From positions 9,956 through 73,955 of the forward strand of contig CAZZHI010000001.1 in assembly GCA_964654145.1 (NCBI GenBank): 64,000 nucleotides of DNA, given 5' to 3'. The stretch comes from an uncultured Candidatus Saccharibacteria bacterium (GTDB taxonomy: Bacteria; Patescibacteriota; Andersenbacteria; UBA10190). The notes beneath the pieces were generated by a model. It did not search any database and had not been told where the DNA came from. It was given only the letters and a program-made list of their open reading frames with translations. The position numbers were made by a program, and so were the translations under genes. Each line of letters begins with the position of its first letter. The first letter of the stretch is position 1. Shown here piece after piece: positions 17,295 through 59,645 of the stretch.

Positions 17295-17333
17295 GATGCG
17301 TATTCTGTACTATTATAGCTTAATAGAGCATTT

Positions 17334-23222: not shown

Positions 23223-23462
23223 TGTGAGTAAATTGTGGGTAACCACACACCTAGTGAGGAAAACCTGTGTGCATATAATAAAGTTTTCCCAAACCATCCC
23301 CAGTTCCTATATTTTTCCACACAGAAAATCCACAGATCTACAAAAAATATCCACATCTTTTCCAATGAGCAAGTATCTGTGTAAAGCCTTTTTATCCCCT
23401 TATCCCCAGATTTTCTCCTTACTACAATAACGTATAACTAACTTTTATATTATTACGGCCTT
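23223..23462. other. Candidate oriC: dnaA-dnaN intergenic region with clustered DnaA-box-like motifs and an AT-rich unwinding stretch
   Basis: It contains tgtgggtaa (23234-23242), ttttccaca (23313-23321), aaatccaca (23326-23334), atatccaca (23347-23355), ttatcccct/ttatcccca (23392-23408), then acttttatattatta just before dnaN. Each motif is within 1-2 mismatches of TTATCCACA. Confidence 0.55.
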
Positions 23463-24569: not shown

Positions 24570-24570
24570 T

Positions 24571-30826: not shown

Positions 30827-30844
30827 AATGTATGGAGTATGAAA

Positions 30845-36948: not shown

Positions 36949-36972
36949 ATAAGGCAGTGTACCCTTACGAGC

Positions 36973-37992: not shown

Positions 37993-38021
37993 GAAAGAAG
38001 AGGGAAATACTATATACTTAC

Positions 38022-39710
38022 GTGTATATGGTGTTTGATCCTGTCTTATCGGAGGCTGAGCGAAATAAAGAGCTCGGTGCTCGGTTGTCTACATTCTCTC
38101 AAGGACAAGAAGAGCGTCTTGCTGAGCGTCGTGCAGAAGAGCTTGGTCTTCCGTATATAAATTTAGTTGTGTTTCCTATTGATTCTGACGTACTGGAAAG
38201 GGTTCCAAAAACAGATGCTCTTCGTGCACAAGCGGTTTTGTTTTACAAGCAGGGTGGAGATATTCGCCTTGCGGCGGTCGACCCTTCATCTAAGGAGGTG
38301 CAGGAGCTCGCAAAGCAAATTGAGACAAAGATAGGGTATGCGCCGCATTTATATGTAGTATCTTCTCGGAGCGTTGCGGCTGCAATTGCTCGATACAGGA
38401 GAGACTCAACGATAAATAATGCTCCTCAGGATGAATTGAGGATTAATCAAAAAGAGGCGGATGCATTTTCTACGGAACTTAAAAATCTAGAAGAGCTCGG
38501 GCTTCGTATTACTACGATGCCGCCGACTGAAATTTTAAGCGCTATCGTAATTAGTGCTGTTCGTCTCCGTGCTTCCGACATTCACGTTGAGCCAAAAGAA
38601 AAGCAGGCGCGTTTGCGTTTTCGTATTGATGGTGTCTTGCAGGATGTTGCTACGTTTGATCGAGAGGGTTGGTCCCTTCTTCTTTCTCGAGTTAAGGTTA
38701 TGGCGAAATTAAAGCTCAATGTTCGAGACGTGCCTCAGGACGGTAGTTTTGTATTACGAATAGGCGAAGAAACGTTCGATATGCGTCTTTCTACGTTGCC
38801 AGGGGGAACGGGGGAGAATATCGTTATTCGTTTGCTTGATAGAAGGGCTGAAGCGGTAGAACTGCCTGCTCTTGGTATGAAGACTCGGGATTTAGAGATT
38901 GTTCATCGCGAGCTAAAGCGCGTAAACGGAATGATATTAATAACAGGTCCTACCGGATCAGGAAAAACCACTACACTAGCCTCTTTTTTGCGAGAAGTAA
39001 ATAATTCTGATTTAAAAATTATTACCTTAGAGGATCCTATTGAGTATCGAATTACGGGAGTTGAGCAGACCCAAGTAGATGCTGATGCAGGGTACTCCTT
39101 TGCGTTGGGGTTGCGCTCTATTTTGCGCCAAGACCCAGACATGATTATGGTGGGTGAAATGCGTGATGTGGAAACCGCAGAGACTGCAGTACACGCTGCG
39201 CTAACTGGGCATTTAGTATTTTCAACACTTCATACAAACGATGCCGCGGGCGCAATTCCTCGACTTATTGATATGGGGATACGCCCCTACGTTCTTGCCC
39301 CGGCGCTGAATCTTGTGATTGCCCAGCGTCTTGTTCGAGTGGTTTGCAGCTCTTGTGCTCAGGAGTATAAGCCAGACGCTTCTCAAATAGCTCGAGCAAA
39401 AGAAGTAATGAAAGGTGTTCGAGAGGATATATTTAATCCAAGTGTTCTTGATGATACTTCTCTTATGTTTATGAGAGCTGTGGGTTGCGCCGCGTGCGGC
39501 AACACGGGGTATCATGGGCGCTTGGGCGCATTTGAGATATTCGCAGTTCAGGGAGAGATGAAAGATAAAATATTACAAGGCGCAAGTAGTGCGGATATTC
39601 AGGTTCTTGCGCAAAAAGACGGAATGACAACCATTGCCCAGGATGCGTATTTAAAAGTTATAGACAAAAAAACAACAATAGAAGAAGTGGAGCGAGTTTC
39701 TCAGGAATAA
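38022..39710 (+). CDS. GspE/PilB-family type II secretion / type IV pilus assembly ATPase
   Basis: It has a T2SSE N-domain, a Walker A (GPTGSGKTTTL), Asp-box and His-box motifs, and a C-terminal tetracysteine (CSSC...CAACGNTG). Confidence 0.85.
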   Translation: MYMVFDPVLSEAERNKELGARLSTFSQGQEERLAERRAEELGLPYINLVVFPIDSDVLERVPKTDALRAQAVLFYKQGGDIRLAAVDPSSKEVQELAKQIETKIGYAPHLYVVSSRSVAAAIARYRRDSTINNAPQDELRINQKEADAFSTELKNLEELGLRITTMPPTEILSAIVISAVRLRASDIHVEPKEKQARLRFRIDGVLQDVATFDREGWSLLLSRVKVMAKLKLNVRDVPQDGSFVLRIGEETFDMRLSTLPGGTGENIVIRLLDRRAEAVELPALGMKTRDLEIVHRELKRVNGMILITGPTGSGKTTTLASFLREVNNSDLKIITLEDPIEYRITGVEQTQVDADAGYSFALGLRSILRQDPDMIMVGEMRDVETAETAVHAALTGHLVFSTLHTNDAAGAIPRLIDMGIRPYVLAPALNLVIAQRLVRVVCSSCAQEYKPDASQIARAKEVMKGVREDIFNPSVLDDTSLMFMRAVGCAACGNTGYHGRLGAFEIFAVQGEMKDKILQGASSADIQVLAQKDGMTTIAQDAYLKVIDKKTTIEEVERVSQE

Positions 39711-46736: not shown

Positions 46737-47645
46737 TTACAGGAATATTTTTTTTGGCTTTATTGCAAGGGCGTTTGTTTCTCGGATCCCAATACCAAAT
46801 AAGTCTTTGCTCTCGTTGAGCAGAGCTATTGGGGTATTTTTAGGCATATTACTAGGGCTTACCCCTTCTTTCCCCTGTTTATATTTTGCGACATTGTCTT
46901 CGGGGCAAACAAGTTGAGGTATATGATTTGTGAGCTCTGCCATTGAAATGAGCACATTTTCTAGCCTGCTAGGAAGGTCTTTTACTAAAAATCCATTTGT
47001 ATCCGAAAATGCTCCTATTGCTGTTCTTGAAAGCTTGGAGCAGTATCCTCCAGTTTTTAGGAGTGTGCCAATATCGCGCGCAATAGACCGAATATATGTT
47101 CCTGTGCTGCACTTCACTGAAATATCTAGAATTGGATAGTTGTATGCGTGAAGAATGATCTCATGAATTATAACGGGGCGCGGCTCCCTCTCTACTACCT
47201 TTCCCTCCCGGGCATACTCATACATTTTTTTACCCTTAATCTTGATTGCTGCGTAGTGTGGTGGAATTTGCTCTGTTTGCTGTTTGATAAAGTTAAGTGC
47301 GGCTTCCACGTCTTTTTGTGTAGGTTGTTGGGGGGCGTTGGTTTTAGTGAGAGTGCCAGTACTGTCGTCTGTATCACTGGTTGCTCCTAGCGTTATTTCT
47401 GCTCGGTATGTTTTAGGGAGTAGGTGGAGTTCGTCTTGTAGTCGCGTCGCGTGCCCTAAAAGGATAATAAGTAGGCCTGTTGCAAAGGGGTCGAGGGTTC
47501 CGCTATGCCCCACCTTTGGCCGTTGGTCTGGGGTGGATACGGTAGCTATGTGGCGTCGGACAGCGTTTACTGCATCATGGGACGTAGCGCCCGCTTCTTT
47601 GTATACGAGCAGCCCGCCATGAGCTATGACTGTATTTTTCTCCAT
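46737..47645 (-). CDS. truB: tRNA pseudouridine(55) synthase TruB
   Basis: The catalytic motif GHSGTLDPFATGLLIILLG is present, and there is a C-terminal PUA-like domain. Confidence 0.85.
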   Translation of the reverse strand: MEKNTVIAHGGLLVYKEAGATSHDAVNAVRRHIATVSTPDQRPKVGHSGTLDPFATGLLIILLGHATRLQDELHLLPKTYRAEITLGATSDTDDSTGTLTKTNAPQQPTQKDVEAALNFIKQQTEQIPPHYAAIKIKGKKMYEYAREGKVVEREPRPVIIHEIILHAYNYPILDISVKCSTGTYIRSIARDIGTLLKTGGYCSKLSRTAIGAFSDTNGFLVKDLPSRLENVLISMAELTNHIPQLVCPEDNVAKYKQGKEGVSPSNMPKNTPIALLNESKDLFGIGIRETNALAIKPKKIFL

Positions 47646-47699
47646 AGATTGGTTACGATACAGGAATTGAGATTATTCAACAATTATTTCTTTTTGTAT

Positions 47700-48659
47700 A
47701 TGTCTAAAACAGCGCTTATAACAGGTATTACGGGGCAAGATGGTTCATACTTAACGGAGCTTCTTTTGGAGAAGGGGTATGATGTGTATGGTCTTGTGCA
47801 GAGGAGCGCAAATTATCAATTTGAGAATATTGAGCACCTGCTTCCTGATATTACTATTATTACGGGTGACTTGGCTGATTCTTCCTCTCTTATGCGAGCA
47901 GTCCAAGTATCAGGTCCTGATGAAGTGTATAATCTTGCAGCTCAGTCCTTTGTGAAGGCGAGTTGGGATATACCGGAGCTTACGGGAGATATTACGGGAG
48001 TAGGGGTTTCTCGAGTACTTGAGGCTGTACGCCTAGAGGCACCAAAGGCTCGCTTTTATCAAGCTAGTAGTAGTGAAATGTTTGGAAAGGTGCTCGCGGT
48101 TCCCCAAAATGAAGATACTCCGTTCTACCCTCGAAGTCCTTACGGAGTTTCAAAGGTGTACGGGCATTACGCTACTGTGAATTATAGGGAAAGTTTTGGA
48201 CTCTATGCATGTTCTGGCATTTTGTTTAATCACGAATCCCCTCGACGTGGAAGAGAGTTTGTAACTCGCAAGATAGCAATTTCGGTAGCAAGAATTAAAA
48301 AAGGTCTCGATTCTGCACTTAAAATGGGCAACATAGAAGCAAAGCGTGATTGGGGTTTTGCGGGAGATTATGTTCGAGCTATGTGGCTCATGCTCCAGCA
48401 GGATACGCCAGAAGATTTTGTTGTTGGGACCGGAGAAACACATTCTGTTAAGGAGTTTCTCGAACTTGCTTTTAGCCATGTAGGTCTAAACTGGCAGGAC
48501 TATGTAACAGAAGACCCCGAATTTATGAGGCCGGCGGAAGTAGATTTGTTGTTGGCTGACCCTACGCGCGCTCGAGAAAAGCTCGGCTGGACTACGGAGG
48601 TTTCCTTTCCTGAGCTTGTTTCCATGATGGTGGAAGCGGAGTTGAAGGCGCTCGCGTAA
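47700..48659 (+). CDS. gmd: GDP-mannose 4,6-dehydratase
   Basis: The real start is an internal Met (MSKTALITGITGQDGSYLTELLLEKGYDVYGL). The track ORF from 47505 overlaps truB and is out of context. The catalytic SxxxxxYxxxK region is present (SPYGVSKVYGHY). Confidence 0.85.
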   Translation: MSKTALITGITGQDGSYLTELLLEKGYDVYGLVQRSANYQFENIEHLLPDITIITGDLADSSSLMRAVQVSGPDEVYNLAAQSFVKASWDIPELTGDITGVGVSRVLEAVRLEAPKARFYQASSSEMFGKVLAVPQNEDTPFYPRSPYGVSKVYGHYATVNYRESFGLYACSGILFNHESPRRGREFVTRKIAISVARIKKGLDSALKMGNIEAKRDWGFAGDYVRAMWLMLQQDTPEDFVVGTGETHSVKEFLELAFSHVGLNWQDYVTEDPEFMRPAEVDLLLADPTRAREKLGWTTEVSFPELVSMMVEAELKALA

Positions 48660-49597
48660 TGGATAGTAGCTCTGTCATTATAACGGGCGGGGGTGGATTT
48701 GTAGGGAGGCATCTTATTGCGGAGCTTCAGCAAAAATCCTCATTTTCTCGCATTCTTGTTTTTGATACGCATGTTGAGCAGCTCCCCCTTGGCGTTGAGG
48801 GGTACGAGGTTGATATTACTAATCCTAAAACATATCAGCATATTCTTCGTGATAATAATCCGGCATGGATTATTCATCTTGCCGCAGTGAGCTCTGTCGG
48901 TTTTGCGATTGATCATCCAGATATTACAAAAACAGTAAATGTGTTCGCAACTGAACAACTGCTTGAAGTATCAAAAAAGCTTGGAAATGAAACTAAGTTT
49001 CTCATTATAAGCAGCGCGGATATTTATGGTCGTGTTGATTTGGAAATAGTTCCTGAATTACCACTTTCTGGTGCGCATCCTACTAACCCCTATGCACAGA
49101 GTAAGCTCGATATGGAGATGATGATTGAAGAAAAGTATAACGATCGATGCATTCGGGTTCGCCCATTTCCGCACATTGGTCCTGGGCAAAACAAGGGTTT
49201 TGTGACCGCTGATTTTGCATCCCAAATCGCGGCTATCGAGAAAGGGGATCAGGACCCAGTAGTTTCCGTTGGGAATTTGGATGCGAAGAGGGACTTTACA
49301 GATGTTCGTGATGTGGTGCGAGCGTATAATCTTTTACTCGAAAAGGGCCGCATGGGCGAGGTATACCATGTTGCGAGCTCGCAGGCTCACTCTATTTCGG
49401 ATGTGTTAGCAACAATGCTATCTATGAGTAGTGTTGCTATCGAAGTTTCTCAAGATGCTTCTCGAATGAGGCCTTCTGACACCCCTATTCTTATAGGGTC
49501 GGCTGAAAAAATATTCTTAGAAACAGCCTGGAAGCCAGAAATTTCATTTGAGACTTCCCTCAAAGATGTTTTGAATGACTGGCGAGGGCGATCTTAG
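48659..49597 (+). CDS. NAD-dependent epimerase/dehydratase partner of Gmd (GDP-6-deoxy-4-keto-mannose reductase Rmd- or GDP-fucose-synthase-like)
   Basis: It has a Rossmann motif (IITGGGGFVGRHL), a YxxxK motif (PYAQSKLDME), and is 312 aa. It lies immediately after gmd with a 1-nt overlap. Confidence 0.6.
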   Translation: MDSSSVIITGGGGFVGRHLIAELQQKSSFSRILVFDTHVEQLPLGVEGYEVDITNPKTYQHILRDNNPAWIIHLAAVSSVGFAIDHPDITKTVNVFATEQLLEVSKKLGNETKFLIISSADIYGRVDLEIVPELPLSGAHPTNPYAQSKLDMEMMIEEKYNDRCIRVRPFPHIGPGQNKGFVTADFASQIAAIEKGDQDPVVSVGNLDAKRDFTDVRDVVRAYNLLLEKGRMGEVYHVASSQAHSISDVLATMLSMSSVAIEVSQDASRMRPSDTPILIGSAEKIFLETAWKPEISFETSLKDVLNDWRGRS

Positions 49598-51453
49598 TTA
49601 GTTCTATACAGCGTGTATGGCCCATAGGACGCTACCGCGTTCCAGGTTGGCCGTATGATAAGTGATTTGAATACTATGTTCTCCTGAGGGCCTACGAGTA
49701 CGTAGCGAGGATCTTCGCCTTCTATAGTGTTGGTCATTTCTGCAAAGTAGCTTTTTATCTCCCTTTCTCTTTCCCAAGGCGTTCCTCCATGGCTCCATAT
49801 ATGGGCGGGGTATCCTAGGAAGATTGATCTTCCGGATAGTATTGCGGGAGAATTGTGTACAGGGGCTGTGAGGACGGGGATTTTGGGTGGAACAATTCTT
49901 TGTATCGCTCTAGCCATATATATGCCATTTTGATCCCATTCGAGCCATGTTGTTGCTGTTGGCAGTGTTAGTTTGTAGATATCGAGTATTCCAGCAAAAA
50001 TATGAATAAAGATGACCCCCAAAACTCCAAGACGTATCCAGATTCTTGGAGTTCGTTTTATGAGCGTTGCTGCGCACCATGCGATAATTGGAAGAATAAA
50101 AATAAGCCAAAATACAAATAGTTTGAAGTTGTCCCATGCCCATGGGGCAAATAAAAATGTGTCCGCAAGAATAAATAAGAATGTTCCCGCTCCTGTTAGC
50201 GCTTTTGCGCTTTTGGGTACTTTTTTGATACATAGGGCGGCAATACTTAAGGGGATGTATATTCCGGTATTTTGGATCCAGTAGACAATGTGATTTATTG
50301 TTCCAGCCATCCACCCCGGACCATATCTGAAAAAGGAACCTTCTACGGCGCTTCCGTTCATATAGAAGAAAAGTTCGGGTATTCCAATAAGGAGCGCAGA
50401 GCAAAAAAAGCGAACCCAAAAACTGCGAACCGGGTAGCATATAAGCATTGCAAGAATTGCTGCGGAGAGCGCGATACAGGCATGTGCATGAAAGAGTGGG
50501 AGCATTCCGGCGAGAAGGCCAGCAACTATTGGTGCGTACTGCCTCTTCATTCTCTTGGGGTGAATAAGAAGGAGTACCGATAATACGATAGGTATTCCAA
50601 ACAACATTGCTCGTTGTGGAAGAAGAAGGGATGTTACGGGGTTTAAAAAGTGAAAGCCATTTACGTCAGTTCCTACGCCCGAATAATCTCTTGTGGGCAG
50701 GTGCAAAAAGAATTCTCCGATTGAAGTTGTACTTGCTGCAATATCTGAGGGAAGTCGAATCCAGCCAAGTGCGGCGCCTCCAAATAAAAATAATGCGCAT
50801 GCAATAATGCCGGCCTGTTTAGATTCTCCATAATCTTTTCCAACGATATATATAAGAACCAGGAGGCAGGGAATTAATAATATTGCTGGTACATTTATGC
50901 TTGCTGCAAGCGATGATCCTAGGCTTACCATTGTTGCGCTAATAAGGTTTGCAAGAAAAGGATAGGTGAGCTTTTCGCCAGTAAATATAGGATCTTCCAT
51001 TGGCAGTGTGCCTTGTTCTGATAGCCCCATAATAATTGCGCCGTGCCACCCAATATCCCCGTATGCGTTTATAATCCCGGTGTATAAACCATCTGGTCGC
51101 TCTATAAGGAGTTTTGATCCGATAATGCTAAATAGAATTATTGATACAATAAAAATACCGCCTCCTATCCAATCTGTTTTCATGTTTCGCAATTGGTAGA
51201 AAATTTTGGGATGGAGTATCGATATGGCGATAGTGCAAAATAAGCCAAGTTGAATGGCAACGCTTAGGGGTGTTATTGGGACAATGTAAGCTGTCGCATA
51301 CGCAATAGTTCCATAGAGCGTTACGCCCAATACGCTCCCAACGCTATATGTAAGTATTTTTTCTCGAAATAGTTTAAGCCAGGATACCAGAGCAACGCCT
51401 GCAAATGCAGGAATCAGAAGTGTTATTGCAGCAATGAGCCATTGGTATACCAT
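49594..51453 (-). CDS. Large polytopic membrane protein, putative GT-C-type glycosyltransferase
   Basis: The protein is about 620 aa with more than 12 TM helices. The start was taken at Met MVYQWLIAAITLL (the track start 51516 overlaps the divergent gene). The family is not recognised with confidence. Confidence 0.4.
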   Translation of the reverse strand: MVYQWLIAAITLLIPAFAGVALVSWLKLFREKILTYSVGSVLGVTLYGTIAYATAYIVPITPLSVAIQLGLFCTIAISILHPKIFYQLRNMKTDWIGGGIFIVSIILFSIIGSKLLIERPDGLYTGIINAYGDIGWHGAIIMGLSEQGTLPMEDPIFTGEKLTYPFLANLISATMVSLGSSLAASINVPAILLIPCLLVLIYIVGKDYGESKQAGIIACALFLFGGAALGWIRLPSDIAASTTSIGEFFLHLPTRDYSGVGTDVNGFHFLNPVTSLLLPQRAMLFGIPIVLSVLLLIHPKRMKRQYAPIVAGLLAGMLPLFHAHACIALSAAILAMLICYPVRSFWVRFFCSALLIGIPELFFYMNGSAVEGSFFRYGPGWMAGTINHIVYWIQNTGIYIPLSIAALCIKKVPKSAKALTGAGTFLFILADTFLFAPWAWDNFKLFVFWLIFILPIIAWCAATLIKRTPRIWIRLGVLGVIFIHIFAGILDIYKLTLPTATTWLEWDQNGIYMARAIQRIVPPKIPVLTAPVHNSPAILSGRSIFLGYPAHIWSHGGTPWEREREIKSYFAEMTNTIEGEDPRYVLVGPQENIVFKSLIIRPTWNAVASYGPYTLYRTN

Positions 51454-51462
51454 ATACGTATT

Positions 51463-52869
51463 ATGAATAGTATAACCTTCTTTGGCGGAGCTGGAAGTGT
51501 CACGGGCAGTAAGCATCTTGTCGAAATTGCTGGGAAGAGAATCTTATTAGATTGTGGTACGTTCCAAGGGCTGCCAGATGTTCGTTCTCGAAATAGAGTA
51601 TTTTCCTTTCCTCCCGATTCTATCGATGCTGTAGTTATTTCTCATTCTCATTTGGATCATATTGGAATGCTCCCCCTTCTTGTAAAGCGTGGGTATGCCG
51701 GAAAAATTTTCTCTACCCCCGCTACGAAAGACGTTGCGTCTTACATGCTTTCGGATTCAGCTGCTATTGAAATGCAGGACGTTTTGTATCGCCAGAAGCA
51801 TCATTTTGGTTCTCCTGATGAGCGAGAGCCGTTATTTGTGTTAGAGGATGTTTCCACAACTTTGGATCGATTTATAACATTTCCGTATGCTCGGGAGGAT
51901 GATTCCTGGCATGAAATACTCCCAGGGGTTTCTTTGAAGTTTTATGACGCCGGGCATATTTTAGGGTCCTCTATTATCGTATTGCGTTACGAAGAAGATG
52001 GTGCTGTAAAGCATGTTGCGTATACAGGGGATGTTGGCCCTAAGGGCGTACCCCTTTTGCATGATCCAGAAGTTCCTAAGGAGGAAATACATACACTTCT
52101 TATGGAAAGTACATATGGAAACAGAAAGCATTCTCCTCTTGTTGAAGCTGAGGATCGATTAGTTGAAGAGATTATAAAAATCCACAAAAGAAAGGGAGTT
52201 ATTGTTGTACCAGCATTTTCTCTTGGTCGAACACAGATGTTGGTCTATACAATTCACAAGCTTGTTGACTCTGGGCGCATCCCTCGATTTCCAATTTTTG
52301 TAGATTCTCCGCTTGCTACCGATATTACGGATATATATCGGAACTATCATAAAGAATACGATAAAGAAGCGGGCACGGATTTTTCTCGTACAGGGGAGGT
52401 TCCTCTAGAGTTTCGAAATTTGGAATATATTCGATCTGCTGAAGAGTCAAAACGTCTAAATGGGAAGCCGGGACCTTTTATGATTATTTCCGCTTCCGGA
52501 ATGATGACTGCAGGCCGAGTAGTCCATCATCTTCGCAATACTATTACCGACCCTAAAAATGCAGTTTTTATAACTGGGTATCAAGCAATCGGTACAACAG
52601 GAAGAAAAATTTTAAGCGGAGCTGACCAAGTAGAGCTCCATGGGCAGTGGTATAAGATCGGGGCGGAGGTATTGTTGTTCAATGAATTTTCTGCGCATGC
52701 AGATGCGGAGCAGCTTACGGAACTGGCCTCTCGTATTCATGGGCTTTCTACAATAGCTCTTGTTCATGGGGAGGTACGGGAATCAGAGGCGCTTAAGGTA
52801 GCGTTGAAGCAGAAAAACGATCAGTGGGAAATTGTTTTATCTAGTGAGGGAAAATCTATTTCCATTTAG
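51463..52869 (+). CDS. MBL-fold beta-CASP family metallo-hydrolase (RNA-metabolising, RNase J/CPSF-like)
   Basis: The N-terminus is MNSITFFGGAGSVTGSKHL. It has the HxHxDH motif (ISHSHLDHIG) and a beta-CASP region with a C-terminal His motif (FSAHAD). Confidence 0.75.
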   Translation: MNSITFFGGAGSVTGSKHLVEIAGKRILLDCGTFQGLPDVRSRNRVFSFPPDSIDAVVISHSHLDHIGMLPLLVKRGYAGKIFSTPATKDVASYMLSDSAAIEMQDVLYRQKHHFGSPDEREPLFVLEDVSTTLDRFITFPYAREDDSWHEILPGVSLKFYDAGHILGSSIIVLRYEEDGAVKHVAYTGDVGPKGVPLLHDPEVPKEEIHTLLMESTYGNRKHSPLVEAEDRLVEEIIKIHKRKGVIVVPAFSLGRTQMLVYTIHKLVDSGRIPRFPIFVDSPLATDITDIYRNYHKEYDKEAGTDFSRTGEVPLEFRNLEYIRSAEESKRLNGKPGPFMIISASGMMTAGRVVHHLRNTITDPKNAVFITGYQAIGTTGRKILSGADQVELHGQWYKIGAEVLLFNEFSAHADAEQLTELASRIHGLSTIALVHGEVRESEALKVALKQKNDQWEIVLSSEGKSISI

Positions 52870-53245: not shown

Positions 53246-53854
53246 ATGATCACTGATATATCGCGGCCTATTCACCCCCATATGGCAATCTATCCCCAGA
53301 ATCCAGCTGTAAGGATTACCACTATTCGGGAAGCCTCTTCCGGGAAAACGGCTCTTAGTGAGATTACGCTAGGCTCCCATACAGGGACACATATTGATGC
53401 TCCTTCCCATATTCATTTAGGGGGTAGGGGGGTAGATGTATATCCACTCGAGCAGCTCATTGGAGATGCTCAGCTGGTAGAAATTGACCCCTCTATTGAA
53501 ACTATTAATGGGCAGGATATACCTCCTACTTCCTGTGAGCGTGTTTTGTTAAAGACGAAAAACTCTCAAAACGATATAGATACATTCGAGGATTCATTTA
53601 CTGCGTTATCAGAAGATGGCGCCCAGGAACTCCTTCGTCGAAATATCCGCTTAATTGGAATAGACGGTTTTTCTATTAAAAAACGAGGGGTCGTTGATCG
53701 AGTGCATGAACTATTATTGGATGCGGGAGTCGTTGTAATAGAGGGGTTGTATTTGCGCCAGGCTGCTATCGGGGATTATCGGCTTATATGCTTACCTTTG
53801 CCAGTTGTTGGGGTTGATGGTGTGCCTGTTAGGGCAGTCCTTGATTCTCGATAA
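53246..53854 (+). CDS. Cyclase-family protein (kynurenine formamidase-like)
   Basis: It has the HxGTHxDxPxH motif (GSHTGTHIDAPSHIH) and is 202 aa. Confidence 0.7.
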   Translation: MITDISRPIHPHMAIYPQNPAVRITTIREASSGKTALSEITLGSHTGTHIDAPSHIHLGGRGVDVYPLEQLIGDAQLVEIDPSIETINGQDIPPTSCERVLLKTKNSQNDIDTFEDSFTALSEDGAQELLRRNIRLIGIDGFSIKKRGVVDRVHELLLDAGVVVIEGLYLRQAAIGDYRLICLPLPVVGVDGVPVRAVLDSR

Positions 53855-53876
53855 GAAATAGACTATCACTACTGAT

Positions 53877-55757
53877 ATGCACGTTGAACCTCTTATGTTA
53901 GGGGATCGAAAAATCGGTCCAGGGTATCCAGCATTTATTATTGCCGAAGCAGGAATAAATCATAATGGAAGTATTGAGCGCGCGTATGCGCTTATTGATG
54001 CTGCTAAGGATGCGGGGGCTGATGCTGTAAAGTTTCAAAAGCGAAATCTCGCTGAAACGTATCAAAAGAAAATTTTGGATAATCCAAATAGCGCTGAGCA
54101 AAAATATCAGTACTTAATTCCCCTTTTAAAAGAATTTGAACTTCCCGACTCTGCCTTTGTTGAAATGGAGCGCTATGCCGAGAAGAGAAATATTATATTT
54201 ATGGTAAATCCGTGGGATAAAAAAAGTGCGGATGCTATAGAAGAGTTGCTTCATGTGCCTTTGTATAAAGTTGGCTCTCCTGATTTTACAAATAACGAGC
54301 TATTGGAATATATTGCGAAAACAAAAAAACCCATGATTGTTTCTACTGGCATGGCGCAAGATGCTGAAATTGAAACTGGAATGGCATTCATTAAAACGCT
54401 CGGCGTTCCATTTGCTGTGTTGCATTGTAACAGTACATACCCTGCTCCCTTTGATGAAATTAATTTAAAGTATATGGACACCCTGACCAAATATGGTGTT
54501 CCTGTTGGGTACTCTGGTCATGAGCGTGGAATTGCCGTCTCTATTGGAGCCGTTGCTCGGGGCGCTTCTATTATTGAGCGACATATTACGGTTGATAAAA
54601 ATCTAGATGGCCCAGACCATAAGGCTTCATTGTTGCCTGATGAATTTAAGGAAATGGTTTCTGGTATTCGCGAGGTAGAGCGCGCAATTGGAAACCCTAT
54701 TAAAAAGCTTTCTCGGGGAGAAATTATGAATCGAGAATTATTGGCGAAAAGCATTGTTGCTAAGGTGTTTATTGCTGAAGGTGCGGTTATAACCCGAGAG
54801 ATGCTCACTACAAAAAGTCCCGCTAAAGGACTATCTCCTCAGAAAATGGATCAAATTGTGGGAACTGTGGCGTCTCGTGATATTCCGGAGGGTGACGCCT
54901 TAACTGAAGATGATCTAAGCGCTTCTGACATTGCCTCTACATTTTCCTCGGAGGATATTGCCTGGAAATGGGGGCCTGTTGTGAGATGGAAAGATTTTGA
55001 ATCGTATTTACCCTATAACCCTTCTTTGTTTGAGTTTCATTTGAGTGATAAAGATTTAGATGAAGCGATACCGAAGGGTACATTCTCTCAAGAAGTGATC
55101 GTTCATGCGCCAGAATACATGAAGCGTGTCTACTTAAACCCAGCATCGGAAGATGCTGATGAGCGCAAGGCGACAATTAAAATCCTTCAAAAGAGTGTGG
55201 ATATTGCTCGTTTATTGGGCGAATCTTTTGTTGGAACCCCAAAGTTTATTATCCATCCTGGCGGGATTACTCTTACGAAGTCCGATCACCCCAAACAGTT
55301 ACTCGAAATATTTGCCGACACCCTTTCGCAACTCAAGTCGGACGGAGTTGAAATATTGCCAGAAAATCTCCCCCCACGCCCATGGGTGTTTGGGGGTGAG
55401 TGGGTGACAAATATTTTTATGCTCGCAGGCGAAATTGAAGAATTCTTAAAATCCACTGGTTACAATATGTGTTTTGACACTTCTCATGCTGCACTTTCTT
55501 GTAATGCGTTTGGTGAAGATTTGCTAGCTATGATTACTCAGCTGCAACCATACATTCGACATTTGCATGTGGCGGACGGAAGTGGAACCGGTGAAGAGGG
55601 ACTTCAAATTGGTCAGGGTACGGTGGATTTTGGAACATTGCTAGCTCCGCTAGCTGGGTATAAACACACGATGGTTCCTGAAATTTGGCAGGGGCATTTA
55701 CATGGAGGAAAGGGATTTTTGCAGGCGATGGAGCATTTGAAGCCCTACTTGAAATAA
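53877..55757 (+). CDS. NeuB-family nonulosonic acid (sialic/pseudaminic/legionaminic acid) synthase fused to a C-terminal xylose-isomerase-like TIM-barrel (sugar phosphate isomerase/epimerase) domain
   Basis: The NeuB N-terminus is FIIAEAGINHNGSIERAYALIDAAKDAGADAVKFQ. It has HCNSTYPAPFDEINL and DKNLDGPDHKASL motifs and a SAF domain (IPEGDALTEDDL). About 270 extra residues follow, carrying IHPGG, LENLPP, FDTSHA and HLHVADG (AP_endonuc_2 / xylose isomerase-like). Confidence 0.8.
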   Translation: MHVEPLMLGDRKIGPGYPAFIIAEAGINHNGSIERAYALIDAAKDAGADAVKFQKRNLAETYQKKILDNPNSAEQKYQYLIPLLKEFELPDSAFVEMERYAEKRNIIFMVNPWDKKSADAIEELLHVPLYKVGSPDFTNNELLEYIAKTKKPMIVSTGMAQDAEIETGMAFIKTLGVPFAVLHCNSTYPAPFDEINLKYMDTLTKYGVPVGYSGHERGIAVSIGAVARGASIIERHITVDKNLDGPDHKASLLPDEFKEMVSGIREVERAIGNPIKKLSRGEIMNRELLAKSIVAKVFIAEGAVITREMLTTKSPAKGLSPQKMDQIVGTVASRDIPEGDALTEDDLSASDIASTFSSEDIAWKWGPVVRWKDFESYLPYNPSLFEFHLSDKDLDEAIPKGTFSQEVIVHAPEYMKRVYLNPASEDADERKATIKILQKSVDIARLLGESFVGTPKFIIHPGGITLTKSDHPKQLLEIFADTLSQLKSDGVEILPENLPPRPWVFGGEWVTNIFMLAGEIEEFLKSTGYNMCFDTSHAALSCNAFGEDLLAMITQLQPYIRHLHVADGSGTGEEGLQIGQGTVDFGTLLAPLAGYKHTMVPEIWQGHLHGGKGFLQAMEHLKPYLK

Positions 55758-55764
55758 CATACGC

Positions 55765-56562
55765 TTGATTTATATGATCCCTATTTACAAGTATCACGCT
55801 GAAGACTTTGATCGAGAACGTGCCTGGAACGACAGGTATCGTTCTATGTATTCAGGAGAAAAAAGTTTTGGCGAATATGAAAAACAATCTTTTTGGCAGC
55901 AACTTAAAGGCTATTTAAAAAAAGAGGGGAAGTATTTAGATGCGGGATGTGGAATTGGCGGATGGGTATTGTTTTTGAATGAGCAGGGCTTTCTTACTGA
56001 GGGAATTGATTCCAATTCGAGTGCAGTACGCGCTCTTACTGAATATGATCCTGATATTGTAGTAAGGATTGCAGGTACTGATGCTATTCCATACGGTAAC
56101 GAAACGTTTGACGGTATTATTTCTATTGGTTCATTGGAATATACAGAAGGGGCAATAGAAAAATCATTTCAAGAAATGTATCGCACGCTGAAAAAAGGCG
56201 GGTTCATTTGCGTGGAAGTTCCCCTCTTCAACACGATTCGAAAAGTTTTATACGTACCGCTTAAGCGCTTGGAGAGCTTTATGAAAAAATCCCAAGGAGT
56301 AACTCCTGATTTTGCGTACTACTTGTTTGATCGAAACGAGTTGGAGAACATGATTACGAATGCAGGTTTTACAATCGACACCGTAGCTGCTCACGATTTA
56401 CCGGATGCAAATAGTCATTTCGGGTTGTACGCAAACTGGCCGCTGCTCCGAGGCGAAAAGCCATACGAATTAAATGCGCTTGGAAGAGTTGTAAAAGCAA
56501 TCGCAAACAGCATTTCTCCGTGGATCGCTTCTGCTGGAGTTGTGGTTATTGCGAAAAAGTGA
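55765..56562 (+). CDS. Class I SAM-dependent methyltransferase
   Basis: Motif I is YLDAGCGIGGWV and motif II is GIISIGSLEY. The protein is 265 aa. Confidence 0.75.
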   Translation: MIYMIPIYKYHAEDFDRERAWNDRYRSMYSGEKSFGEYEKQSFWQQLKGYLKKEGKYLDAGCGIGGWVLFLNEQGFLTEGIDSNSSAVRALTEYDPDIVVRIAGTDAIPYGNETFDGIISIGSLEYTEGAIEKSFQEMYRTLKKGGFICVEVPLFNTIRKVLYVPLKRLESFMKKSQGVTPDFAYYLFDRNELENMITNAGFTIDTVAAHDLPDANSHFGLYANWPLLRGEKPYELNALGRVVKAIANSISPWIASAGVVVIAKK

Positions 56563-56683
56563 CCCGCAGGTCATCCCGGACTTGATCCGGGATCCACGTC
56601 GTGCTATTCCCCTCACCCCATCCCTCTCCCCAACTCAAAACCGCGCCTGTTGGCGCGGAGAAGGGAGAGGGCGATAGATTGAA
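56563..56683. terminator. Structured intergenic region between convergent genes: nested hairpins, candidate bidirectional terminator
   Basis: The hairpins are atcccgga-cttga-tccgggat (8-bp stem), ccgcgcc-tgtt-ggcgcgg (7-bp stem), and an outer pairing ccctctccc...gggagaggg. Confidence 0.4.
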
Positions 56684-57421
56684 TTACCACGCAGTCCAAC
56701 CACCATCTACTACCAGGTTTGAGCCAGTCATGTAGCTGGATGCATCAGATGCCAAAAATACGAGTGGCCCGCCCACTTCTTCCGGGTTCGCCATGCGACC
56801 CATAGGAGTTCGGGCGCCGTACGCATCAGTAAATTCTTTTCCATGGCCATGGAGTACTCCGCCGAGTGTAAGGGTGTTTGCACGTATTCCTTTATCTCCG
56901 TATGTTGTTGCAAGGAATTTCGTGAGCATTACAACGCCGCCTTTGGTCAAGAAGTAATCAACGGGCTTCTGGGTTCCATTCGGATAAATGCGCTGGTCAG
57001 GACCCGTTACTCCGTAAATGGAAGATATGTTAATGATGTTACCGGACCCTGCTTCAAGCATGTGTCGTACAGCTTCCTGCGCAACGAGCGTATAGCCAAG
57101 TAGGTTCACGTCGAGGCTCTGCCTGATGAGTTCTTCCGGATAGTTCTCAAACAGCTTTGTGTTCTGGGCTGCGTCGGGCTCAAACTTCGGATCAATTGCG
57201 GCGTTGTTAATGACAATGTCTATCTTGCCGTGCATCTCTTTCGCTTTTGTAAATGCAGCAGCTATAGATGATGCATTTGTTACGTCCATTTGAACGTCCG
57301 CATCTTCGCCCCTGTCTGTAATAATTACCGTTGCACCTGCTTCTTGTAATGCCTTAATAAAGTATCCACCGAGGAAACCTTTTCCGCCGGTTATAAGTAC
57401 GATTTTGTTTGTGAGTTCCAT
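56684..57421 (-). CDS. Short-chain dehydrogenase/reductase (SDR)
   Basis: It has TGGKGFLGG, NNAAI and YxxxK (YFLTK) motifs, and is 245 aa. Confidence 0.8.
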   Translation of the reverse strand: MELTNKIVLITGGKGFLGGYFIKALQEAGATVIITDRGEDADVQMDVTNASSIAAAFTKAKEMHGKIDIVINNAAIDPKFEPDAAQNTKLFENYPEELIRQSLDVNLLGYTLVAQEAVRHMLEAGSGNIINISSIYGVTGPDQRIYPNGTQKPVDYFLTKGGVVMLTKFLATTYGDKGIRANTLTLGGVLHGHGKEFTDAYGARTPMGRMANPEEVGGPLVFLASDASSYMTGSNLVVDGGWTAW

Positions 57422-57425
57422 AGCG

Positions 57426-58364
57426 CTAGTCTACCTTGGGCCACTTCGCTGGGTCAATTTGGTTCGTATCGGAAATTGCGAGCGGTAAAAGTTCTTGGAG
57501 AATATCTGGCGCCAATTGCCCTGTATTTGCGGCCTCAATTGCGCTTTGGAGGTGGTGCGGTTTTGTTGTACCGATCAACACCGTGGAAACGGCCGGATTG
57601 GAAATGGCGAATCGAATCGCGAGGGTTGGTAGGTCTATGCCAGCTTGCTGGGCAATGGTCGCTGCTTTATCGCTTATTTCTTGCAAGGCGGCGAGGCTAG
57701 GATGTAGCTTTTCTCGCACATTTGTGAGAGCGCCTTTTAGGAGTACTGAACGATTAATAATTCCTACATTGGCTGTTTGAGCTTGAGGGAGGACTGCTTG
57801 GGCCATACGCTGATCTGCAATGCTGTATGCCACCTGCATCGTTTCAAAAAAGCCTGTGTTGAGTGCAGCCAAGGCCGCCGCCTCTCCTCTGATTGCTACT
57901 CCTGCGTGAAGAATTTTTTGCTCATCTTGAAGCTTTTGGAATATTTCTATTATGGCAGAAAAATCAGTGTAATCTTCCAATTCATTGTGAAATTGTACGA
58001 GTTGTAATACTTCTTGGCCCAGATTTTTTCGGCTCATATCTATTTCTTCGCGGATGCGCTGCTCGAGTTCAGCGGGGGAAAGTGTGGGTTCGTTTTTTAA
58101 AAACTGTCCGCATTTGGTTCCGATAACAACGTTCGGATTTTGAGTGATATTGGATTTTCCAATACGCTCTTCTGCAAGTCCGTATCCCCGAGCCGTGTCG
58201 ATGTAGGTGATGCCCATCTCTACCGCAGTTTTTAAAATTGTAATCGCCTCCTGTTCACTGGGCAGTGAAACAGGACCGATGCCATAAGGAATTCCAATCT
58301 CTACGGTTCCAAGGCCGATTTTGGATACATTAAGTCCGGTTTTTCCTAATAGCGTTGTGTTCAT
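57426..58364 (-). CDS. Aldo/keto reductase
   Basis: It has GLGTVEIG...IDTARGYG AKR signature motifs, and is 312 aa. Confidence 0.8.
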   Translation of the reverse strand: MNTTLLGKTGLNVSKIGLGTVEIGIPYGIGPVSLPSEQEAITILKTAVEMGITYIDTARGYGLAEERIGKSNITQNPNVVIGTKCGQFLKNEPTLSPAELEQRIREEIDMSRKNLGQEVLQLVQFHNELEDYTDFSAIIEIFQKLQDEQKILHAGVAIRGEAAALAALNTGFFETMQVAYSIADQRMAQAVLPQAQTANVGIINRSVLLKGALTNVREKLHPSLAALQEISDKAATIAQQAGIDLPTLAIRFAISNPAVSTVLIGTTKPHHLQSAIEAANTGQLAPDILQELLPLAISDTNQIDPAKWPKVD

Positions 58365-58831
58365 ATGAGAAGTTTCTTGTGTATTTTTATTACTACTTTA
58401 TTGAGGTTATTGTAGGATCCAGTACGAATTTTTGGCATATGAGGTTCTTGTGGAAAGAATATTGCAAAATCCCCCTTTTGCATTATGTACACGCTATATT
58501 CGTTGGGCGGCGTAAAAAGCTGGTAATCTTTTTCGGTATCAAACGATGTTTTTTCCGTTAGTGTTGCTAGCGGTGCAAAACCAATAAGTTCTGCGCCCTC
58601 AATGCAGTAATGAATATCAATATACTGAGCATGAACTTCAAATACCCCTTCTTGCTCAGAGACTGCTGGTATACGCATGACATTCGCATATAAATCTCGG
58701 CCAATAATTTCATGTTCCCCATGCGGGACTGTTGCTGCATGTTCTTGAATCCAGGCGAAGGCCTGTTGCCATACAGGGCTGGTAAGTCCGTTTTCTTGCA
58801 ATGCTTGGTTGGTATATTCCCCAAAAATCAT
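58361..58831 (-). CDS. YhcH/YjgK/YiaL (DUF386, NanQ-like) family protein
   Basis: It aligns well with E. coli YhcH. ANVMRIPAVSEQEGVFEVHAQYIDIHYCIEG matches [30 protein letters not shown]. The EKDYQL and FPQEPHMP blocks match EDDYQL and MPGEPHKP. Confidence 0.75.
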   Translation of the reverse strand: MIFGEYTNQALQENGLTSPVWQQAFAWIQEHAATVPHGEHEIIGRDLYANVMRIPAVSEQEGVFEVHAQYIDIHYCIEGAELIGFAPLATLTEKTSFDTEKDYQLFTPPNEYSVYIMQKGDFAIFFPQEPHMPKIRTGSYNNLNKVVIKIHKKLLI

Positions 58832-58853
58832 GAGTTCAGTGTATCATAGGCGT

Positions 58854-59645
58854 ATGAATACCAATCCCAAAAACACCCCAGTAGAAGTTGCGGCTATTAT
58901 TCCTGCCCGTGCAGGTCAACAGAGCGTCCCGTATAAGAATTTACAAGTTTTAGGAGGTAAAACCCTCTTGCAATGGGCGATTGAGGTCGCATTTGAGGCA
59001 GAGGCGATCGATGTAGTTATTGTTTCAACGGAAGATGAGAGAGTGAAGGAGGAGGCGGAAAGATTTGGCGCATTAGTCGCTCCTCGGCCAGCAGAGTTCT
59101 CTCAGCCTAGTAGTGGAGATGCGGGCTTTTACCAGCATGCGGTGAAGTGGATGGAAGAAGAGCATGGGTGGACCCCAGAATATTTGGTTAACCTACGACC
59201 GACTAGTCCACTACGATTTGCTTCAGACATTGATAAGATGGTTGAACACATAAAAAGTTCAGATGCGGATGGACTCAAGAGTATTATTCCAACGCCGCTT
59301 CATCCATATAAAATGTGGCAATTGGATGGATCCGCAGAAATAGGATCTTCTGGAAAATTACTCCCCGTGTTTGATAATGAATTTCGACAAAAACATGGGC
59401 CTGATCAGCCACGGCAAAAAATTCAAGAAATGTTCCCTGTGTTTTTTCAGGATGGGCAAGTAGATATTACTCGCAGAAAATTTGTCTTACGTCCCGAGGC
59501 GTTGGAGTTACAAAATATATGGGGTGAAAATCTTCATGGGTTTGTTCTTGATCCTCGAACAAGTACCGACTTGGATGAGCCGGAAGACTTTTTGCGCGCG
59601 GAAAAAATATACAAAGACATGCAGTCAGAGCGCGGAGAGGCGTAA
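58854..59645 (+). CDS. Acylneuraminate cytidylyltransferase family (CMP-nonulosonic acid synthetase, NeuA/PseF/LegF-like)
   Basis: The N-terminal motif is AAIIPARAGQQSVPYKNLQVLGGKTLLQWAI (compare IPARGGSKGIPRKNI). The start was taken at Met MNTNPKN, because the track start at 58809 overlaps the divergent yhcH-like gene. Confidence 0.7.
   Translation: MNTNPKNTPVEVAAIIPARAGQQSVPYKNLQVLGGKTLLQWAIEVAFEAEAIDVVIVSTEDERVKEEAERFGALVAPRPAEFSQPSSGDAGFYQHAVKWMEEEHGWTPEYLVNLRPTSPLRFASDIDKMVEHIKSSDADGLKSIIPTPLHPYKMWQLDGSAEIGSSGKLLPVFDNEFRQKHGPDQPRQKIQEMFPVFFQDGQVDITRRKFVLRPEALELQNIWGENLHGFVLDPRTSTDLDEPEDFLRAEKIYKDMQSERGEA

Follow-up and report, generated by a model that had tools for sequence, protein, structure and literature searches.

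Genes at the locus

We analysed a gene cluster at positions 53246-59645 of a 64,000-nucleotide stretch of contig CAZZHI010000001.1 (assembly GCA_964654145.1, an uncultured bacterium of the Andersenbacteria lineage); the whole stretch is called the window below. At the heart of the cluster lies an open reading frame (ORF) encoding a fusion of a NeuB-type nonulosonic acid synthase with a xylose-isomerase-like TIM barrel. The fusion family is real, widespread and uncharacterised, and it is not specific to this genome. We see an even chance that the genes of this region form a pathway which converts GDP-mannose, and not an amino sugar, into a CMP-activated, sialic-acid-like (nonulosonic) sugar.

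Genes were assigned from an ORF map of the 46-64 kb part of the window combined with Pfam and NCBIfam profile scans. Lengths are in amino acids (aa), and profile scores are in bits.

47700-48659, + strand: gmd, GDP-mannose dehydratase (TIGR01472 440.3 bits; PF16363 427 bits)
48659-49597, + strand: Rmd-like extended short-chain dehydrogenase/reductase (SDR), 312 aa (best PDB matches 2pk3 and 6x3b)
49594-51516, - strand: polytopic membrane protein, 640 aa, with 12-13 hydrophobic segments
51442-52869: beta-CASP RNase J-like gene, between the gmd, Rmd-like and membrane protein genes and the cluster
53246-53854, + strand: cyclase-family (arylformamidase-like) metal hydrolase (PF04199 69.8 bits; TIGR03035 121 bits, cutoff 223)
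53877-55757, + strand: NeuB/TIM fusion, 626 aa (PF03102, SAF, PF01261)
53877-54917, + strand: NeuB and SAF part of the fusion, aa 1-347, a predicted nonulosonate synthase condensing phosphoenolpyruvate (PEP)
54954-55757, + strand: xylose-isomerase-like TIM-barrel domain of the fusion, aa ~360-626, with a metal-ligand set like that of Endonuclease IV and MJ1311
55765-56562, + strand: class I S-adenosylmethionine-dependent methyltransferase (Methyltransf_23 56.6 bits)
56641-56658, no strand assigned: G+C-rich hairpin CCGCGCC-AACA-GGCGCGG (terminator scan)
56684-57421, - strand: classical SDR, PtmA/PRK09186-like (adh_short_C2 146 bits; PRK09186 167 bits; FlagModPtmA 127 bits, below cutoff)
57426-58364, - strand: aldo-keto reductase (PF00248 134 bits)
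58361-58831, - strand: YhcH/YjgK/YiaL (DUF386) protein, NanQ-like (PF04074 130 bits; NF040884 110 bits, cutoff 160)
58809-59645, + strand: CTP_transf_3 cytidylyltransferase (PF02348 67.8 bits, cutoff 22.6; best model PseF, 77 bits, cutoff 206)

The seven genes from the cyclase to the cytidylyltransferase are thus recovered, with identical coordinates, from an original prediction made by inspection of the sequence. That prediction described the cluster as preceded by gmd, an rmd/fcl-like gene and a GT-C-like protein. The first two stand, but the RNase J-like gene in between had gone unmentioned. The third is indeed a membrane protein, whereas the GT-C label finds no Pfam or NCBIfam match. It may be a glycan-handling protein, and its membership in the system is uncertain.

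The cyclase gene is separated from the fusion by 22 nt, and the stop codon of the fusion from the methyltransferase by 8 nt. The convergent methyltransferase and SDR genes leave a gap of 121 nt that hosts the hairpin, which is probably a bidirectional terminator. The divergent YhcH and cytidylyltransferase genes begin back to back inside a CATG at 58829-58832, and in related loci the gap between these two genes is only 7-40 nt. With starts so close, the promoters must be located within coding sequence unless the next ATG, 58854, is where the cytidylyltransferase begins; its start is likely the ATG at 58830 or the one at 58854. The mechanical ORF of gmd starts at 47505. The methionine of its MSKTALITG motif is at 47700, probably the true start.

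Profile scans of about 48 window ORFs detected no members of the NeuC (Epimerase_2), PseB, PseC/DegT and PseG families and no LegC, LegH or LegG, in line with the earlier remark that NeuC-, PseB-, PseC- and LegB-type genes are missing from the window. The three Leg enzymes are not conserved in related contexts either. No aminotransferase was observed in the window or in the minimal cassettes of other genomes, and no haloacid dehalogenase (HAD) phosphatase in the cluster or conserved beside the fusion. A KdsC-like Hydrolase_3 gene in one related locus (L070) sits beside KdsA, not beside the fusion.

The fusion protein and its family

Three Pfam domains were found in the fusion protein, all above cutoff: NeuB (PF03102) at residues 39-275 (267.4 bits, cutoff 22.1), SAF (PF08666) at residues 291-347 (43.5 bits, cutoff 21) and AP_endonuc_2 (PF01261) at residues 406-623 (84.5 bits, cutoff 31.1). 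The profile check of 53877-55757 thus confirmed both halves of the protein, and with them the proposal of an atypical nonulosonic-acid-type cluster built around a NeuB/xylose-isomerase-like fusion. Public annotation goes no further than "N-acetylneuraminate synthase family protein" or "SpsE/sugar phosphate isomerase".

More than 120 proteins of about 626 aa with 60-87% identity and the same three domains were retrieved from a set of 5.8 billion; all members with a named source come from Candidatus Andersenbacteria or Patescibacteria. A search seeded with the Sulfurimonas protein produced another 120 homologues of equal length and domain composition, with about 40% identity to the window protein. 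In AlphaFold2 predictions the whole fusion has a pLDDT of 90.2, and residues 355-626 alone reach 94.9 with a pTM of 0.93; the model is confident across the linker. The N-terminal half of the predicted structure superposes on NeuB of Neisseria meningitidis and PseI of C. jejuni, and the Foldseek match of the fusion to N. meningitidis NeuB (1xuu) has an E-value of 3e-29.

One could suspect an assembly or frameshift artefact that merged two genes. Indeed, unfused pairs exist: in two loci (L064, L093) NeuB-SAF and TIM are encoded as Rosetta-stone pairs of separate genes, the stop codon of one overlapping the start codon of the other, and one actinobacterial copy (L061) is fragmented into several ORFs. 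However, NCBI, JGI, ENA, Logan and Tara assemblies, cultured isolates included, together supply over 240 independent proteins that are full-length (620-650 aa). An artefact is hardly conceivable, and a frameshift or misassembly was ruled out given hundreds of collinear homologues, confident models and a reading frame without interruption. This, together with the PF01261 match, also removes the two doubts raised along with the original prediction, namely a C-terminal part unrelated to TIM barrels and a misjoining of two genes.

The closest match of the window protein in GTDB (97% identity) comes from an Andersenbacteria-type metagenome-assembled genome (MAG), and the locus is syntenic with that of Cand. 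Andersenbacteria RIFCSPHIGHO2_12_FULL_45_11b. This agrees with the tentatively suggested origin from a lineage of the candidate phyla radiation type; Andersenbacteria belong to the Parcubacteria group of Patescibacteria. The order gmd, Rmd-like SDR, membrane protein, RNase J, cyclase, fusion, methyltransferase, SDR, aldo-keto reductase, YhcH, cytidylyltransferase is conserved in about 15 Andersenbacteria-type MAGs (GTDB species representatives). The cyclase gene is present in most Andersenbacteria loci; it is missing from one of them (L012) and from all other phyla examined.

The fusion is not confined to this lineage. It forms a large family with members in no fewer than eight bacterial phyla and also in MAGs of giant viruses. 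Full-length fusions with 36-41% identity were found in Kiritimatiellae, Chloroflexota, Sulfurimonas, Acidobacteriota and uncultured Actinomycetota, and in the cultured Nocardioides furvisabuli and N. lacusdianchii. The search with the Sulfurimonas protein added Sulfurospirillum arsenophilum, Campylobacter concisus, Arcobacteraceae, Leptospirales, Desulforhopalus singaporensis, Bacteroidota and Tara Oceans assemblies. The fusion also occurs in IMG/VR, including three giant-virus MAGs of 22-27% G+C (GVMAG-M-3300020182-21, -3300020169-51 and -3300020185-18; L086-L088). Upstream of the fusion the contigs of these three carry gmd and a gene for a gmd-family protein of 548 aa that is extended by 200 aa at its N terminus. 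In the Actinomycetota contig CAVPUL010000005 (L061) the homologue is spread across several overlapping ORFs, and this copy may be a pseudogene or reflect a sequencing error.

The C-terminal domain alone matches 678 clusters among 1.84 billion representatives at 50% identity, 369 of them with E <= 1e-10. The architectures fall into four groups: NeuB-SAF-TIM proteins of about 630 aa, CBS-NeuB-SAF-TIM proteins of about 750 aa, stand-alone TIM proteins of about 270 aa, and fragments. The one stand-alone protein that was checked is encoded directly after an unfused NeuB-SAF gene. Since nearly all TIM domains are fused to NeuB or encoded beside it, this TIM subfamily is almost exclusively a partner of NeuB. 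The window protein belongs to the short class of about 630 aa. Proteins of the long class (L016, L021-L026, L073-L075; P0266, P0290) start with a CBS pair and have Asn and Gln at the positions of the TIM-domain residues H460 and E496.

The NeuB domain scores below the curated cutoffs of both relevant models, NeuB_NnaB (TIGR03569, 343.9 bits, cutoff 399.65) and PseI (TIGR03586, 234.1 bits, cutoff 340.25). The higher score of the NeuB/LegI-type model (344 against 234 bits) fits a substrate of D-manno configuration. The metal-binding H215 and H236 and the catalytic E24 and E234 are invariant in 76 diverse fusions (less than 60% mutual identity). Glu134 of the N. meningitidis enzyme corresponds to Asp136 in the fusion, and the same change is seen in archaeal and eukaryotic synthases and in 29% of environmental ones (PMC8208679). 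The main departure is at Arg314, the only catalytic residue of the SAF domain conserved in canonical NeuB (PMC8208679) and the residue mutated in PDB entries 4ipi and 4ipj. The window protein has Ser314 at this position (..TTKSPAKG..), and almost all of 307 fusions have Ser or Ala. Lys317 is invariant in the short class. Thus the protein has the domain pair and the metal and catalytic residues of the nonulosonic acid synthase family, but not Arg314. As this arginine presumably contacts the substrate in NeuB, its loss would fit a sugar lacking the 2-acetamido group.

Conserved neighbours and precursor supply

In most loci the core consists of the fusion and a cytidylyltransferase, and the window belongs to the 630-aa subclass tied to gmd and Rmd-like genes. 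The cytidylyltransferase is found beside or near the fusion in most loci and is directly adjacent in nine of the ten genome loci sampled across phyla. It adjoins the fusion in Kiritimatiellae, Chloroflexota, Sulfurimonas, Acidobacteriota, Nocardioides, C. concisus, Leptospirales, Desulforhopalus, Bacteroidota and viral contigs, and is missing from the flanks of the fusion in three IMG/VR lineages. ORF calls in the high-GC Nocardioides locus are noisy, and the annotated neighbours there are the cytidylyltransferase and a GT4 glycosyltransferase only. Representative gene orders are as follows (CTPt, cytidylyltransferase; MTase, methyltransferase).

C. concisus: manC-gmd-fcl-SDR311-fusion-CTPt-MTase-wzx-MptE-like
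Sulfurospirillum: PMI-fusion-gmd-manC-CTPt
Sulfurimonas: Maf / fusion-gmd-MTase-CTPt
Leptospirales, Desulforhopalus, Bacteroidota and a JGI contig: SDR of 313-316 aa with its stop overlapping the fusion start by 8 nt, then CTPt
A Tara contig and most IMG/VR loci, giant-virus MAGs included: gmd-family gene directly upstream of the fusion

By our own tally, a gmd or Rmd-like gene lies beside the fusion in about 16 of 19 short-class lineages, against one of eight CBS-class lineages. The window gmd (440.3 bits for the ORF 47505-48659) is above the equivalog cutoff of 415. The adjacent SDR, with the motifs GGGGFVG and YAQSK at the TGxxGxxG and YxxxK positions of its family, is closest in PDB to 2pk3 (GDP-6-deoxy-D-lyxo-4-hexulose reductase, 196 bits) and 6x3b (166 bits); its match to Gmd is about 77 bits. 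It is a predicted GDP-4-keto-6-deoxy-D-mannose 4-reductase, which would yield GDP-D-rhamnose or its C4 epimer. In Campylobacter concisus, Leptospirales, Desulforhopalus and Bacteroidota an SDR31x gene runs into the start of the fusion gene, and the window SDR and these SDRs are reciprocal best matches. Against the fusion-coupled SDRs the window SDR reaches 94-128 bits, compared with 85 bits against gmd, and the fusion-coupled SDR of Leptospirales likewise has 2pk3 and 6x3b as its best PDB matches. Because of these reciprocal best matches and the gmd-family genes flanking the fusion elsewhere, the window genes at 47700-49597, which had been regarded as merely preceding the cluster, probably feed the nonulosonate pathway.

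Methyltransferases recur as well. Methyltransf_23 genes adjoin the fusion or the cytidylyltransferase in Sulfurimonas, C. concisus, Desulforhopalus and Bacteroidota. Loci with an SDR31x-fusion pair have a Methyltransf_23 gene and an MptE-like transferase close by, except for Leptospirales; the JGI contig has a methyltransferase and no annotated MptE-like gene. The PtmA-like SDR is syntenic in Andersenbacteria only. The original prediction noted the methyltransferase, the two reductases and YhcH in place of the usual precursor enzymes. Of these, the methyltransferase recurs in other phyla, but the two reductases and YhcH are, like the cyclase, Andersenbacteria-specific additions and not the defining part of the system. 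A methylated or reduced nonulosonic acid as the product is what this gene set suggests.

The transferases encoded near the fusion are of the sialic-acid or Kdo (3-deoxy-D-manno-octulosonic acid) type: Maf in Sulfurimonas, and elsewhere MptE-like/WaaZ-like and KpsS/C-like proteins and a GT29 sialyltransferase. This suggests that the cells use the product as a sialic-acid-like donor.

Could this be an ordinary legionaminic acid, pseudaminic acid or Neu5Ac (N-acetylneuraminic acid) cluster, with the precursor genes elsewhere in the genome and an accessory or regulatory C-terminal domain? Only 64 kb of the genome are visible, the SDR is similar to PtmA, which in Campylobacter belongs to the locus for legionaminic-acid modification, and DegT aminotransferases are present in some related loci, 2-6 kb from the fusion. 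On the other hand, the synthase is under the curated cutoffs of the NeuB and PseI models and has lost Arg314; no NeuC/LegG (Epimerase_2) or PseG-type gene occurs beside the fusion in any of about 30 annotated contexts; and the conserved neighbour is an SDR of the GDP-mannose type, not LegB or PseB. We consider such a cluster very unlikely. A canonical Neu5Ac, pseudaminic or legionaminic acid cluster was rejected as the preferred reading on the same scores and the missing Arg314, and because the window lacks NeuC, PseBCGH and LegBCGH. An aminated (perosamine-type) variant was set aside as well, DegT being absent from the window and from most minimal cassettes.

Some loci have a richer gene content. 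In ENA ERZ3421942 NODE_405 (L072; protein P0224, also in Tara Oceans) the fusion is surrounded by genes for a GT29 sialyltransferase, a GT47 protein, a DHDPS/NanA-like protein, a sulfotransferase, an APS kinase and a PhyH dioxygenase, a set that suggests a form of the sugar carrying sulfate or hydroxyl groups, in surroundings of eukaryote-like or viral character. PhyH and DHDPS-like genes were observed again in two other loci (L068, L079). In Desulforhopalus singaporensis (L069) two STT3/PglB-type oligosaccharyltransferase genes adjoin the fusion cassette, which hints that the sugar is perhaps attached to N-linked protein glycans there.

The rest of the window contains a second glycan cluster at 13197-19675 (- strand) with genes for a Wzx-type flippase, two Wzy_C/O-antigen-ligase-like proteins and two GT2 glycosyltransferases and a 287-aa ORF without an assigned family. 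This cluster could be the site of a CMP-sugar transferase gene; MptE- or Maf-like transferases were found nowhere in the window, this cluster included. At 21798-25635 dnaA, dnaN and recF are consecutive and the GC skew changes sign near 24 kb, so the window covers the region of the chromosomal replication origin. Two overlapping ORFs at 9628-10329 and 10326-12134 (+ strand) encode a VirB4/TraC-like type IV secretion ATPase. A gene pair at 29519-32398 (- strand) encodes an ATP-grasp protein, annotated as "sugar-transfer associated" and including a Zn-protease domain, and a PKD/7TM-transglutaminase membrane protein. The products encoded at 35137-39710 (+ strand) are a 603-aa protein in which the lamin-tail (LTD) domain occurs three times, a member of the CofD family and a type II/IV secretion (pilus) ATPase. 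Neither the Rfam scan nor the tRNA scan of the window gave any matches.

A candidate pathway and its relation to known systems

The following order of reactions may be proposed. Gmd, identified by homology above a curated cutoff, would convert GDP-mannose to GDP-4-keto-6-deoxy-D-mannose. The Rmd-like SDR, judging by its similarity to solved Rmd enzymes, would reduce this to a GDP-6-deoxyhexose, most simply GDP-D-rhamnose. The TIM-barrel domain may then act on the nucleotide sugar and pass the free 6-deoxy-aldose to the NeuB domain, in place of NeuC, LegG or PseG. This role is suggested by elimination and by the fusion itself: NeuB-type synthases need a free aldose, and the minimal cassettes offer no other candidate. 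The NeuB domain, whose chemistry follows from homology, would condense the sugar with PEP to an amino-free 3,9-dideoxy-non-2-ulosonic acid ("9-deoxy-Kdn"; Kdn is 2-keto-3-deoxynononic acid), the substrate being our prediction. The YhcH-like protein is a possible anomerase ahead of CMP activation, and the cytidylyltransferase, assigned by family homology, would form the CMP-sugar. The methyltransferase would probably place a methyl group on the sugar. The PtmA-like SDR, the aldo-keto reductase and the cyclase-family hydrolase would be lineage-specific tailoring enzymes, to which we assign no order; the aldo-keto reductase, whose nearest PDB relatives are L-galactose dehydrogenases (about 72 bits), may be either a tailoring enzyme or an oxidoreductase of a free sugar.

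In its full form the proposal says that the TIM barrel is a third, hitherto unrecognised kind of nucleotide-sugar-releasing enzyme, equivalent in function to NeuC/LegG and PseG but metal-dependent and Endonuclease IV-like, and that the product is an amino-free 3,9-dideoxy-nonulosonate (9-deoxy-Kdn), a class of nonulosonic acid so far undescribed in nature, methylated here and displayed by candidate-phyla bacteria, Campylobacter concisus and giant viruses. We put this forward tentatively, as a possibility somewhat short of an even chance.

The predicted metal site bears on the role of the TIM domain. In the 76 diverse fusions E386, H388, D393, H410, D534, H537, H564, D567, E574, E602 and H607 are invariant, and H460 and E496 are conserved in the short class and replaced by Asn and Gln in the CBS class. 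The zinc ligands of Endonuclease IV are His69, His109, Glu145, Asp179, His182, His216, Asp229, His231 and Glu261. Alignment through MJ1311 and the Endonuclease IV motifs places H410, H460, E496, D534, H537, H564, E574 and E602 at eight of these nine positions in the window class; the equivalent of His231 is absent.

The same barrel could be a sugar isomerase or epimerase, or act on the enolate of a keto sugar, resetting the configuration of a keto intermediate or of the free sugar, with GDP removed by an unlinked enzyme and the rest of the precursor route unchanged. The window class has E496, D534, H564 and E602, the canonical Glu-Asp-His-Glu ligands of epimerases. However, E496, whose equivalent is the catalytic base in epimerases such as D-psicose 3-epimerase, is Gln in two thirds of the diverse members (51 of 76); the invariant H388, D393, H410, H537, E574 and H607 exceed what an epimerase needs; and no other conserved gene of the minimal cassettes could remove the nucleotide. 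We regard this assignment as unlikely.

A different explanation is a Kdn-type route. Here the synthase would use mannose or mannose-6-phosphate, the TIM domain would be a 9-phosphate phosphatase or a GDP-mannose hydrolase, and gmd and the Rmd-like gene would make a separate GDP-6-deoxyhexose for the same glycan. The CBS long class often has the cytidylyltransferase as its sole neighbour (L016, L021, L022, L075), so that its source must be a common metabolite. Animal and Bacteroides pathways are generally known to pair a NeuB-family synthase with a phosphatase, an Endonuclease IV-like metal centre is compatible with phosphoester hydrolysis, and in the window other genes separate gmd and the Rmd-like gene from the fusion. 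PMC8208679 cites the NanS/NanP pairing. However, an Rmd-like or gmd-family gene overlaps the start codon of the fusion in many unrelated lineages, GDP-mannose genes that serve another sugar would hardly be expected to be interleaved between fusion and cytidylyltransferase, and no HAD phosphatase is conserved nearby. This route has perhaps one chance in a handful, and it fits the CBS class better than the class of the window. A 9-phosphate phosphatase activity of the TIM domain is disfavoured for the window class, as a 6-deoxy precursor has no 6-phosphate; for the CBS class we keep it as a rival.

Several observations weigh against the proposed GDP-mannose route with a releasing TIM barrel. In the window gmd and the Rmd-like gene are 3.6 kb away from the fusion, with the membrane protein and RNase J genes between them, and thus could serve a separate D-rhamnose glycan. 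Since glycan clusters often contain gmd, it should lie near the fusion in some cases by chance alone. In several loci gmd is present without an Rmd-like gene, and the CBS class usually lacks both, so the sugar used by the synthase may differ among subclasses; a different substrate is possible especially for the CBS class, which is usually tied only to the cytidylyltransferase. The replacement of H460 and E496 by Asn and Gln in the long class speaks against a trinuclear hydrolase site strictly conserved across the family. The TIM fold as such does not discriminate between a releasing enzyme and an isomerase, epimerase or keto-sugar enolate enzyme. Finally, no glycosyltransferase for a CMP-sugar was identified in the window.

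In the literature we found no description of a NeuB/xylose-isomerase-like fusion or its product, of 9-deoxy-Kdn, of a nonulosonic acid derived from GDP-D-rhamnose, or of an N-acetylneuraminate synthase of C. concisus. Nor did we find a description of nonulosonic acids in Patescibacteria, in agreement with the earlier comment that this lineage is not known for sialic-acid-like sugars. The phylogeny of 13,941 NeuB sequences in PMC8208679 does not mention the fusion. For MJ1311 one paper was found, on AP endonucleases.

If the proposed route is true, the fusion represents a new entry into nonulosonic acid synthesis and probably a new sugar, made by a widespread synthase with a fused TIM barrel and a coupled GDP-mannose dehydratase and reductase. 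Nonulosonic acids (sialic, legionaminic and pseudaminic acids and Kdn) occur on flagella, capsules, S-layers and viral particles and shape host recognition, immune evasion and phage attachment. To our knowledge, all bacterial routes either release the sugar from its nucleotide by NeuC- or PseG-type enzymes or use a phosphorylated sugar and a HAD phosphatase. Surveys that derive "sialic acid capacity" from NeuB would then mis-assign hundreds of lineages, among them giant viruses, a Campylobacter associated with humans, and Patescibacteria, which are ultra-small and have very few biosynthetic genes. Cultured carriers exist, and the question is directly testable.

In its logic the candidate system most resembles two known routes, the GDP-linked legionaminic acid pathway and Kdn synthesis, although it fails the defining features of both, having neither LegC, LegH and LegG nor a HAD phosphatase. 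In the legionaminic acid pathway (LegB, LegC, LegH, LegG, LegI and LegF of C. jejuni) a GDP-linked hexose is 4,6-dehydrated, a free 6-deoxy sugar of D-manno type is released and condensed with PEP by a NeuB-family synthase, and the product is activated with CMP. The proposed pathway would follow the same logic, with a PtmA-like SDR and methyltransferases as modifiers in both cases. The differences are that the dehydratase is Gmd acting on GDP-mannose and is followed by an Rmd-like reductase, that a fused xylose-isomerase-like TIM barrel stands in place of the hydrolysing 2-epimerase of the NeuC family, and that the synthase lacks Arg314. There is also no aminotransferase and no N-acetyltransferase, so 5,7-diamino groups are not expected. 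With Kdn synthesis, as in the Kdn-9-phosphate synthase and phosphatase of Bacteroides thetaiotaomicron, the proposed pathway would share an amino-free sugar, a NeuB-family synthase, a mannose-type precursor and CMP activation. However, the known route uses mannose-6-phosphate and a HAD phosphatase, whereas here gmd and Rmd-like genes are linked to the synthase and its partner is a TIM barrel. O-methylated Kdn occurs in rhizobia.

On the protein level, the fusion has about 30% identity to N. meningitidis NeuB (1xuu) over 341 residues, with the same two-domain fold and with His215/His236 and Glu25/Glu234 kept; it differs by Asp for Glu134, Ser for Arg314 and the additional C-terminal domain of 270 aa. 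MJ1311 of Methanocaldococcus jannaschii (3wqo, "D-tagatose 3-epimerase-like protein") is a stand-alone, uncharacterised protein, whereas the TIM domain of the fusion is almost always linked to NeuB. Endonuclease IV, all but one of whose zinc-ligand positions carry His, Asp or Glu in the window class, acts on DNA. The remaining parallel is the GDP-D-rhamnose pathway formed by Gmd and Rmd (Aneurinibacillus thermoaerophilus, 2pk3; Pseudomonas aeruginosa, 6x3b), which the window gmd and the adjacent SDR resemble by profile score and best matches, respectively. There, glycosyltransferases use GDP-D-rhamnose directly, whereas in loci of several phyla with the fusion the Rmd-like gene is translationally coupled to it.

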